From Phoronis australis (Eukaryota > Animalia > Phoronida), in assembly GCA_002633005.1 (NCBI GenBank), contig NMRA01000064.1:543895-607894 (forward strand): a stretch of DNA of 64,000 bases, read 5' to 3'. Positions 26,329 to 28,669 of the stretch are shown here, one piece after another; within the stretch, counting starts at the first letter, position 1, and the number at the start of each line of letters is the position of its first letter. The notes beneath the pieces are model-generated. The model saw nothing but the letters and a program-made list of their open reading frames with translations. It did not search any database and was not told where the DNA came from. The position numbers and the translations under genes were made by a program.

Positions 26329-28669
26329 ATGCCGAGAATTCCACTTAAAATGAACAAGACGTATACAACTCCTCGACGTCCCTTTGAGAAGGAGCGTCTG
26401 GATCAGGAGTTAAAGCTGATTGGTGAATTTGGTCTGCGTAATAAGCGTGAAGTATGGCGCGTCAAGTACACCTTGGCCAAGATCCGAAAAGCTGCCCGGG
26501 AGTTGCTCACTCTGGAAGAGAAAGAACCCCGACGTCTATTTGAAGGTAACTCATGGCAACGCAGTTTTCACCTGTACAACTCTTAGCAATAATTGTGTTG
26601 GTTTACAAGTATAATCAGACTGTCTTGGAAGTAAACTTGTGCATCACTCTGTTTTAGGTTGTCATTCAGGTTAATCATTCAGTTGACCTGTGAGTACACT
26701 TCTGAAACATTAGTTACAGCAGGTTGCTGTCATGCTGTGTCCAAATCAACTTGAAATACAGTACAGTTGACTTCGTACAGTTATAGAATGAAGTGTTATA
26801 TGTGAGTATGATTGTGTAAAGTACACTAAGCAGTGGTTGCTTACTACTCCTTTGTTTTGTAGGTAATGCTTTATTACGCCGCTTAGTGCGCATCGGTGTG
26901 CTGGACGAACAGAAGATGAAACTTGATTATGTCTTGGGTCTTAAACTTGAGGATTTCTTGGAAAGACGATTGCAAACTCAGGTGTTCAAACTGGGCCTGG
27001 CTAAGAGTATCCACCACGCTCGTGTTCTCATTCGTCAGAGGCATATTCGGTGAGTGCTTCATCTGTTCCAGTTGCGCTTTGATGTTCTTCAAATACTTAA
27101 CAAGGCTAAAGTCATCATCATCAATTACTTGTTTAGTCTCCTAAATGAGTCTGACAAGGTACTTTCTAGTCTTAAGTTAGGGTTGCTTTTTGCTAACGAC
27201 ATCACGGTGTCTCCACTCTGCTAGTATGACGTCGGTGTTGGCATGTTGTCTTGAGCAGTATTGTGCCAATGGGCCTAATCTCGATTTTTCTCCTACAGCT
27301 ATCTGCAGCAGAAGCAAGTGAAGTGTCAAATGTAATATTGCAATAGGCCACTGGAGACAATGTCCCCACGTCTATTAACAGCTCATTTTCACTGGCCAAG
27401 ACTGTTATCAGATAGGCCACTTGGGAAACCTTCCCAACGTCTATTGGTTGAACTGTGCTTGGAGCTACAGACCACTTGTAAACTATTCTGTCTCAGGCCA
27501 CTGGAGGTTGTATACCTTTATGTCTGTTGCACTTGCACATTGAGTGATCAAGGTGAGTTTGTCTCTATTTAGTGGAGCTTTGCCTTCTCGATACCAATGT
27601 GTTAACACCCCATTGTTGTTATACTTACTTTAATTATTCTGTGCAATTACTTACAGTGTGCGCAAACAGGTTGTGAACATCCCCTCCTATGTGGTTAGAC
27701 TGGACTCGCAAAAACACATTGACTTCTCACTTAAGTCACCTTACGGTGGTGGACGGGCAGGTAAGTGGTTTAGTTTGGAGCATTTGTTTAATGTGCCACA
27801 GGAGAATGCATGCTTGGTTGTCACTGGCCTTCCTGTCCACCAAACTGCATGAGGTGTTCCTATTGAAAGCACGACTTGTGTTTTGTTTTCGGGTGAATCT
27901 TTAGGCTGTGGCACCCCATAGGGACCATTTTAGTTCCTTGATGATTCTTCATGAAGTTCGAAATACATATTCCTGTTCAGTAAAGCAGGGGTGACATTTA
28001 GTTCAGTATGGCTCTATCTGCTGTGGTATATCATTATGGCTAGTTTTTTTGCACGTGCACTGGGATCTACCAATTTTTTCTTTTGCGCAAGTTTTTTTTT
28101 CACGTGCCCTGAGATCTACCAATTTTTTCTTTTGCACACTGTACTCGCATTAGTTGTTCATTGTCACGCACAGAGTAACAACTTCCGCCTTACCCTAGTT
28201 ATCGGACGTGTGTGTGTGAACGATCCACTTAAAAGTGAGGCAAGTTGCACTTGTGCATGTTGTTCTAGGGTAGGGTGTGTGGGGATGGGACTTTTGCTAT
28301 CATCGCTTTTGTCAAACAAGTCGCGCTGTCATTTTGAAAGTGCCCGAGTTTCTTGTAAAAATTAGATATACTCTCCATTACTGGCTGTTGTCGTCTCCTG
28401 CTAGATAGGGAAAATAGAAACTCAAGATTCAGCAGTTACAAGCGTGCTGGGGTGGAAATGCACATTACTGTGAATACTGAAAGTATACTGTAATTCACCA
28501 ACCATTAAAGATTAATCGCCAAACCCAGGGATTTGTACTTCTGGCTTATTGGCCATATCAGTTTGTGTATGTCAATTTATTCCATGAATCTTTATTCACA
28601 GGCCGTGTCAAGAGGAAGAACTCTCGTAAGGGTGCTGGTGGTGATGATGATGATGAAGATGAAGATTAA
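26329..28669 (+). CDS. RPS9: 40S ribosomal protein S9 (uS4), 191 aa
   Basis: Coding exons 26329-26545, 26863-27049, 27657-27760, 28602-28669 (576 nt) translate to [45 protein letters not shown]...[16 protein letters not shown]...[28 protein letters not shown]...[28 protein letters not shown] at 28738-28743. Confidence 0.99.
26652..26768 (+). ncRNA. Candidate intronic H/ACA snoRNA (RPS9 intron 2)
   Basis: Lower stem TTTTAGG/TCTGAAA, upper stem CAGGTTAA/TTGACCTG, H box ACATTA (ANANNA), second hairpin CAGGTTG/CAACTTG, then ACAgtt. The lower stem of the second hairpin is weak and no target was identified. Confidence 0.3.
27299..27552 (+). other. RPS9: Putative poison (PTC) cassette exon in RPS9 intron 3, containing repeated CAC-loop hairpins
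   Basis: Branch-like CTAAT at 27275-27279, acceptor TTTTTCTCCTACAG ending at 27298, perfect donor AAG|GTGAGT at 27552/27553. In-frame TAA at 27333-27335. Length 254 nt, not a multiple of 3. Confidence 0.75.

Follow-up and report, generated by a model that had tools for sequence, protein, structure and literature searches.

Three C-loop-type hairpins in an RPS9 poison exon: a candidate uS4 operator in animals and filamentous fungi

Introduction

Which feature of its own transcript might ribosomal protein uS4 read in eukaryotes? Feedback control of S9/uS4 is known from bacteria to flies, and the RNA feature recognised by eukaryotic uS4 is not pinned down in the excerpts of the literature that we examined. 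(Statements on papers cited by PMC number refer to excerpts of those papers.) In Drosophila, overexpression of RpS9 raises an isoform with a premature termination codon (PTC) that is degraded through UPF1 (Plocik and Guthrie, 2012; PMC3315480). The same work describes PTC cassettes in the last RPS9 intron of vertebrates, RNAz-positive windows, and feedback in fly and yeast, so that the precedent invoked in the original prediction for the present locus, RPS9 feedback by unproductive splicing, is indeed in print. That prediction placed an RPS9 poison exon with three mimics of 18S helix 16 in the window, the whole 64-kb stretch of DNA analysed here. In the following, we ask whether this exon is used, whether its hairpins are conserved, and what they might bind.

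The RPS9 gene and its poison exon

Pfam matches, PDB hits and reads identify the gene as RPS9/uS4 (192 aa, + strand). RNA reads give it five exons, the first of which is non-coding, and the intron that bears the cassette is therefore intron 3, numbered as in the original prediction. The host is an animal and probably a spiralian, as guessed from the N-terminus of the protein; a tree of exon 3 had too little resolution to place it. The features of the gene are:

25135..25160, + strand: 3' part of non-coding exon 1 (exact match of loose read ends before 26307)
26308..26545, + strand: exon 2, with ATG at 26329 (junction reads; Pfam PF00163; PDB uS4 hits)
26863..27049, + strand: exon 3, ending in HIR with a phase-2 donor (junction reads; Pfam S4 domain PF01479, positions 1-28 of 48)
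27274..27298, + strand: cassette acceptor, with an inferred branch-point-like CCTAAT, pyrimidine tract and CAG (from sequence; use of the acceptor from reads)
27299..27552, + strand: cassette (poison) exon, 254 nt, 6-10% inclusion (junction reads)
27333..27335, + strand: premature stop TAA; predicted product of 146 aa, cut within the S4 domain (from sequence)
27657..27760, + strand: exon 4, VRKQ... (junction reads)
28602..28752, + strand: exon 5, with the normal stop at 28667-28669 and the end of the read pile-up at 28749-28752 (reads)

Some further observations concern the surroundings of these exons. At 25120-25160, the pyrimidine run that precedes non-coding exon 1 possibly marks a 5' TOP start, intron 1 contains a near-identical repeat (25500-25555 / 25819-25856) adjoining an N at 25562, and a stretch of intron 4 (28142-28313) with low read depth on both strands and many variants is probably a repeat element. 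Neighbouring genes are one with a sodium/calcium exchanger domain (46747-47523, + strand; PF01699, E 2e-20) and one with a weak match to an RFC1-like AAA+ lid (7869-8462, - strand; E 2e-4, below the cut-off).

The cassette is spliced at exactly the sites that had been claimed. Junctions 27049>27299 and 27552>27657 are present in all three raw RNA runs analysed (X2, X3 and X4, stranded and from one study; 18-19% of each run was scanned). Upstream/downstream inclusion junctions were covered by 74/102 reads against 940 skipping reads in X2 (8.6%), by 104/111 against 935 in X3 (10.3%) and by 140/160 against 2270 in X4 (6.2%), all of these percentages being steady-state values. From a second study, X1, whose status as RNA is a guess, one contig contains both cassette junctions. 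Read depth is flat across the cassette, and its limits are the splice sites. Inclusion brings in the TAA at 27333, as predicted, 217 nt ahead of the next junction and hence beyond the 50-55 nt by which poison exons are recognised. Spliced at both ends and equipped with a premature stop, the cassette is a poison exon, and the transcript that includes it would be expected to enter nonsense-mediated decay (NMD). Sequence variation is low in the exon: among three individuals and with low read depth in the introns, 3 of 254 nt are variable in the cassette versus 13 of 249 nt in the upstream intron (Fisher p 0.011), while the downstream intron has two variable sites in 104 nt. The variable sites of the cassette spare every hairpin loop core.

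The donor of the cassette had been described as perfect. It does match the consensus and is used according to the reads, but folding predicts that it is buried by pairing with 27623-27645, within the following element:

27533..27645, + strand: predicted long stem, in which cassette donor 27550-27558 pairs with 27623-27631 of the downstream intron

This stem has a z score of -3.30 (1/200 shuffles) and leaves the donor with a calculated unpaired probability of 0.04-0.11, so that the predicted burial could explain why inclusion is low despite a consensus donor. In relatives, burial of the donor is inconsistent, with unpaired values of 0.06-0.69 in six loci whose candidate donors were guessed. Bonuses or penalties placed on the hairpins in the folding calculation did not change donor accessibility (0.04-0.11), and a refolding switch was rejected because the donor stayed closed even when the hairpins were forced in silico. 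Two side observations may be recorded for this part of the intron. The variant T27629G, found in X2 and X3, weakens the donor stem and both runs show higher inclusion, which with three samples is an anecdote only; furthermore, read depth is 10-20 in the intron after the cassette (27554-27634) and 0-12 in the intron before it, which fits slower removal of the former.

Three hairpins with a common loop

The exon contains three hairpins of the pattern GGC-CAC-U...A-N-GUC and one additional half-site:

27342..27376, + strand: hairpin 1, C-loop-type 3x1 loop (folding; R1 E 4.7e-6; R2 E 0.011)
27411..27445, + strand: hairpin 2, C-loop-type 3x1 loop (folding; R1 E 3.3e-9; R2 E 0.067)
27494..27526, + strand: hairpin 3, C-loop-type 3x1 loop, the least stable in context (folding; R1 E 0.0067; R2 E 0.0012)
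27467..27478, + strand: fourth 5' half-site, either a degenerate copy or an alternative pairing partner for the 3' side of hairpin 3

R1 and R2 are covariance models built from 12 copies from other animals, with the hairpins of the window held out, and from 14 fungal copies only, respectively; their E-values are rough. Folded alone, hairpins 1, 2 and 3 adopt the structures originally drawn for them, each with the common 3x1 loop (z -2.46, -3.19 and -1.97). Among 5000 shuffles of the exon none contained three copies of the motif, and one copy was present in 0.5%. The upper stems had been called unrelated. Copies 1 and 2, however, share 79% identity across 34 nt, their upper stems differ by two compensatory changes, and given this degree of identity the pair looks like an old tandem duplication. 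The half-site at 27467-27478 does not fold into a stable hairpin by itself (z -0.17). It competes with the 5' strand of hairpin 3 for pairing with the 3' strand, and the closing pair of this hairpin has a calculated probability of 0.03 to 0.49 depending on context. The allele G27425C, found in X4, disrupts one pair in the upper stem of hairpin 2.

SnoRNAs are frequently encoded in the introns of ribosomal protein genes, and the exon contains an ANANNA hexamer (27469-27474) plus a later ACA, as might be expected if an intron-encoded small RNA, either an H/ACA-like snoRNA or a miRNA, overlapped a cryptic exon. This explanation appears extremely unlikely to us. The hairpins are only ~35 nt long and have a 3x1 loop in place of a guide pocket, the boxes lie apart from them, and the fungal copies described below are single hairpins in introns of ~70-90 nt. 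Rfam at gathering thresholds gave no match in the 64 kb and, when nine loci and the RPS9 gene were searched, weak unrelated matches only, all of them off the hairpins. An H/ACA snoRNA was rejected for want of two long hairpins with guide pockets, of adjacent boxes and of an Rfam match; a miRNA was rejected by the lack of an Rfam match and by the flat, splice-site-bounded read depth.

Occurrence of the hairpin in other RPS9 genes

RPS9 loci were collected from 24 of the 64 parts of a metagenome collection with a scan anchored at the boundary of exon 3 and the following intron, which yielded 115 of an estimated ~320 loci. According to protein signature, 26 of these are animal-type, 35 filamentous-ascomycete-type, 44 other-fungus-type and nine alga-type, and one is of another type. 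In PDB checks, the best match of one insect-type locus was 4v6w, which we take to be the fly structure, and the best matches of one ascomycete-type locus were 7r81/5oql, presumably from Neurospora and Chaetomium.

Eleven of the 26 animal-type loci (8/15 with complete and 3/11 with partial introns), representing ~9 independent lineages, have the hairpin in their HIR|VRKQ intron; five of the 11 contain two copies and six a single one. With a pattern that was tuned after inspection of earlier scan results, the animal HIR introns gave 16 sense matches in 22,148 nt as opposed to one antisense match, one match in 46,178 nt outside this intron, and a mean of 0.9 and a maximum of 3 matches in 100 shuffles. 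The pattern scan did not find the hairpin in 7 of the 15 complete animal introns, and in 13 animal loci without the motif a more permissive C-loop scan revealed nothing convincing either. In two of the animal-type loci (L027:2461-2581 and L029:439-527) the first hairpin is located 10-11 nt past the constitutive donor, and 170-200 nt downstream there are candidate donors; this arrangement suggests an alternative 5' splice-site mode in place of a cassette. As a separate observation, six arthropod-type loci (L030, L056, L057, L063, L068 and L096) possess a second conserved element in the first 90-190 nt of the HIR intron, which consists of GG(C/T)(C/T)ACAT, then an A-run, then CCT. L063 and L096, both devoid of the C-loop hairpin, have a 44-nt block in common (80% identity).

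The same motif occurs in a different, short intron near codon 24 of RPS9, in 24 of 24 filamentous-ascomycete-type loci of sufficient length (11 were too short). These 24 loci have 17 distinct cores and always a single copy, which is positioned 7-20 nt past the donor in 22 of the 23 loci with a located donor. The motif was not found in the searched loci of the other types, namely 24 of the 44 other-fungus-type and 7 of the 9 alga-type loci. Thus, where it was detected, the element accompanies RPS9 across lineages but in different introns, and it is absent elsewhere in the material searched. Several copies are evidently not required, because 24/24 fungal and 6/11 animal loci have a single one.

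Both covariance models recognise the hairpins of the window. When applied to the 64 kb, R1 recovered all three (E 3e-9, 5e-6 and 7e-3; next match 0.35), and R2, built without any animal sequence, ranked them as the top 3 of its 15 matches (E 0.001-0.07; next match 0.68). Across the two groups, R1 found 7 of 12 fungal copies weakly (E 0.025-1.5) and R2 found seven animal copies in five loci (E 0.003-3.6). The two strands of the stem change in concert in 11 of 13 pairs of alignment A1 and in 10 of 13 pairs of alignment A2, although the covariation scores of both are inflated because the alignments were picked by a pairing scan; in a fungal set chosen partly by position the signal is weaker (6/13 pairs). 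In A1, the long-strand C, A and U and the paired A are invariant (24/24), the U-A pair is present in 24/24 and the C-G pair in 23/24, and the single 3' loop base varies between C, U and A. The original prediction had proposed that structure rather than sequence is conserved and had named conservation and covariation of the CAC loops in relatives as a check. The compensatory changes in the hairpins of other RPS9 genes bear out the former, and for the latter we found an invariant core and covarying stems, within the limits of the inflated scores. The RPS9 hairpin is a real and conserved element, and very probably a regulatory one.

The conservation also bears on two explanations that need no sensor protein. 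One of them regards the cassette as a cryptic exon that is neutral and in which a local duplication arose by chance, which would agree with the resemblance of copies 1 and 2 and with the stability of the whole 326-nt region, which does not exceed that of shuffled sequences (z -0.48). It is largely refuted by the detection of held-out hairpins across kingdoms with R1 and R2, by the enrichment over shuffles and by the low variation in the exon, and we consider it hardly conceivable. The other explanation invokes RNA structure alone, or general splicing factors, as the cause of a fixed or stress-tuned unproductive leak in which no ribosomal protein is sensed. The predicted donor-burying stem could indeed set a low level of inclusion without any protein, and transcription factors also control the splicing of yeast RPS9A (PMC11734700). 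A plain stem, however, has no need of a loop sequence that stays invariant in both animals and fungi although the stems covary, which makes this explanation unlikely in our opinion.

Likeness to 18S rRNA and to the C-loop module

The rRNA hairpin with which the exon hairpins had been compared was labelled helix 16. We retrieved this quoted hairpin from 49 loci, most of them 18S, and the structure line of the Rfam SSU model places it at 441-467, so that the 530-loop helix is the third hairpin after it. The 530-loop helix is h18 in the standard numbering. Counting back from there, the quoted hairpin is h15 and not h16, in agreement with PMC12825303, and the label has to be corrected. According to the same source, uS4 clamps the base of h15-h18 (~nt 435-600) and, as stated in a single passage, the base of h15. 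That the exon hairpins are cooperatively bound mimics of helix 16, as originally proposed, therefore seems very unlikely to us: uS4 does contact h16 (PMC6007441, PMC12825303), and tandem copies are present in 5/11 animal loci besides the window locus, but h16 is a long hairpin without a 3-nt CAC loop in the Rfam consensus, and a single copy is the norm in fungi.

How far does the likeness to h15 reach? Both hairpins have C-CAM-U opposite A-G in common, an agreement that is not independent since these letters were fixed in the 18S search pattern. Outside the loop core, the lower stem of h15 is ACC/GGU. A drawing of h15 with the core of the RPS9 hairpin is possible, but it has no extruded base in the C-loop register; among 22 variants, the third loop base of h15 is A (15), C (5) or U (2). 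Neither R1 (E up to 5) nor R2 (E up to 10) had a match at h15 in 27 18S loci. Hence, of the proposal that the hairpins carry an rRNA-like C-CAC-U 3x1 loop, the common loop core stands while recognition of h15 by the models does not, and as far as the sequences tell, the likeness to 18S does not extend past the loop core, itself in keeping with the general C-loop module. Mimicry of 18S is therefore plausible at most, because neither model detects 18S and because C-loops recur in many RNAs. The 18S motif scan gave no match in viral contigs. Eukaryotic 18S contigs turn up in many prokaryote assemblies of the genome collection (L116-L164), apparently as contaminants.

With an asymmetric loop inside a hairpin, a C as the first base of the long strand and Watson-Crick flanks, C-CAC-U opposite A-N-G meets the definition of a C-loop, and the sequence is compatible with the two crossing base triples (cWS and tWH). 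The invariance of the first C and of the U-A pair, and the variability of the single 3' base, would follow from a C-loop fold. We take h15 to contain a C-loop as well. C-loops of rRNA, the thrS operator and viroids resemble the RPS9 hairpin in their asymmetric loop, first long-strand C, Watson-Crick flanks, free short-strand base and setting in a hairpin, and they are known as protein sites; for the RPS9 hairpin, the triples are a prediction with which its sequence is compatible (PMC9516175, PMC2952876, PMC6237812). No report of a C-loop in RPS9 pre-mRNA was found in the literature searched.

Proposed mechanism

The cassette is spliced into RPS9 transcripts, it brings a stop, and its hairpins are conserved with compensatory change. 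The reading we favour, and regard as fairly probable, is that the hairpins bind surplus uS4, which would increase inclusion and thereby NMD of the transcript. In detail, the hairpins would capture surplus uS4 while the RPS9 transcript is still being made; the bound hairpins would favour inclusion of the cassette, which is the weakest step of the proposal; and the included premature stop would send the transcript to NMD. Binding, its effect on splicing and decay are all modelled on the precedent of fly and yeast. A protein effect on exon definition is likelier than a refolding switch, since stabilised hairpins left the donor closed. In the fungi and in the two animal loci with a hairpin 7-20 nt past the donor, bound protein would instead block that donor. 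Cooperativity among copies is speculation, single copies being common.

The loop may fold as a C-loop in which the first C and the U-A pair, both invariant, form a trans Watson-Crick/Hoogsteen triple and the single 3' base is extruded, and uS4 might recognise the hairpin by its resemblance to the C-loop stem of 18S h15, the base of which it clamps. Provided that uS4 does bind, we see about an even chance that this resemblance is the basis of recognition. The ligand could also be a neighbour of h15 (eS4/eS24), a complex containing uS4 or a non-ribosomal C-loop binder, in which case cross-regulation would replace simple self-binding. In bacteria h15 is mainly held by bS16, and eS4/eS24 fill the places and roles of bS16/bS20 around it (PMC6007441, PMC12825303); moreover, unrelated proteins are described to bind C-loops. 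This alternative is nevertheless rather improbable, as the feedback in fly and yeast responds to the dose of S9, the yeast helix recruits Rps9 (PMC4856989), and the motif follows RPS9 across different introns.

Binding of uS4 can be extended to a broader scenario, which we consider possible but somewhat doubtful. A single C-loop hairpin, derived as a copy of the h15 base, would serve as the uS4 operator across opisthokonts and would have moved between RPS9 introns, with three splicing outcomes (poison-exon inclusion, donor switching and intron retention); the tandem arrays of animals would sharpen the response to free uS4, and the helix of yeast RPS9A/B would be a diverged form.

Relation to known systems and significance

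The intron after the HIR codons is, we assume, homologous to the 'last' RPS9 intron of vertebrates. The exon resembles the Drosophila and vertebrate RPS9 cassettes in gene, PTC cassette, low inclusion and structured conserved RNA at the PTC; there, RNAz windows are given per clade, and the excerpts name no common motif, tandem copies or rRNA helix (PMC3315480). For yeast, Petibon (2016; PMC4856989) reported that the ChIP signal of Rps9 requires an intron helix, the bulge of which was compared with the 18S site, and the repressive RPS9A stem was validated by Rangan (2025; PMC12350175). The S. cerevisiae RPS9A/RPS9B helix is comparable to our hairpins as a bulged intron stem that represses splicing and recruits Rps9 (PMC4856989; Hooks, 2016, PMC4937481; PMC12350175); by eye, its splicing-repressing stem shares the CAC-U...A core with our hairpins, but its lower pair is A-U and its short strand has two bases. 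The yeast helix further differs in acting through intron retention and, in these sources, is reported for Saccharomycetaceae and Candida only.

In plants, P5SM, a 5S rRNA mimic in the pre-mRNA of TFIIIA, likewise couples splicing to NMD by an rRNA-like structure in a PTC cassette (PMC12218528). Here, by comparison, the hairpins are small and repeated, and they would favour inclusion in the very gene that encodes the ligand. P5SM is reportedly a single large mimic in another gene, is bound by L5 and promotes skipping. Small conserved structures have also been proposed as feedback sites in fungi (rps0, rps2, rps20, rpl7, rpl30, RPL12 and RPS13; PMC5640933, PMC8216456), but in the excerpts RPS9 is absent from these lists and none of the motifs is described as common to animals. 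Among 1371 ascomycete genomes screened, no more than two structures were present beyond a single subphylum (PMC8216456).

The original prediction considered the multi-copy exon undescribed. We found no Rfam family and, in the excerpts searched (PMC11585973 included), no account of the animal-fungal hairpin or of its tandem copies; the figures and supplements of Plocik, Petibon and Hooks could show the motif for vertebrates, flies or yeasts. The idea of rRNA mimicry, on the other hand, is not new, because the yeast bulge had already been likened to the 18S site (PMC4856989). What is new would thus be a precise candidate operator, found across kingdoms, within a known RPS9 feedback system.

Cis-acting RNA structures that can be detected across kingdoms are rare. 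A motif of ~35 nt with an invariant core of 5 nt, present in animals and filamentous fungi, turns the question of what uS4 reads into a point-mutation experiment. If the proposed mechanism is true, one module would have been reused in different introns and in different modes of splicing.
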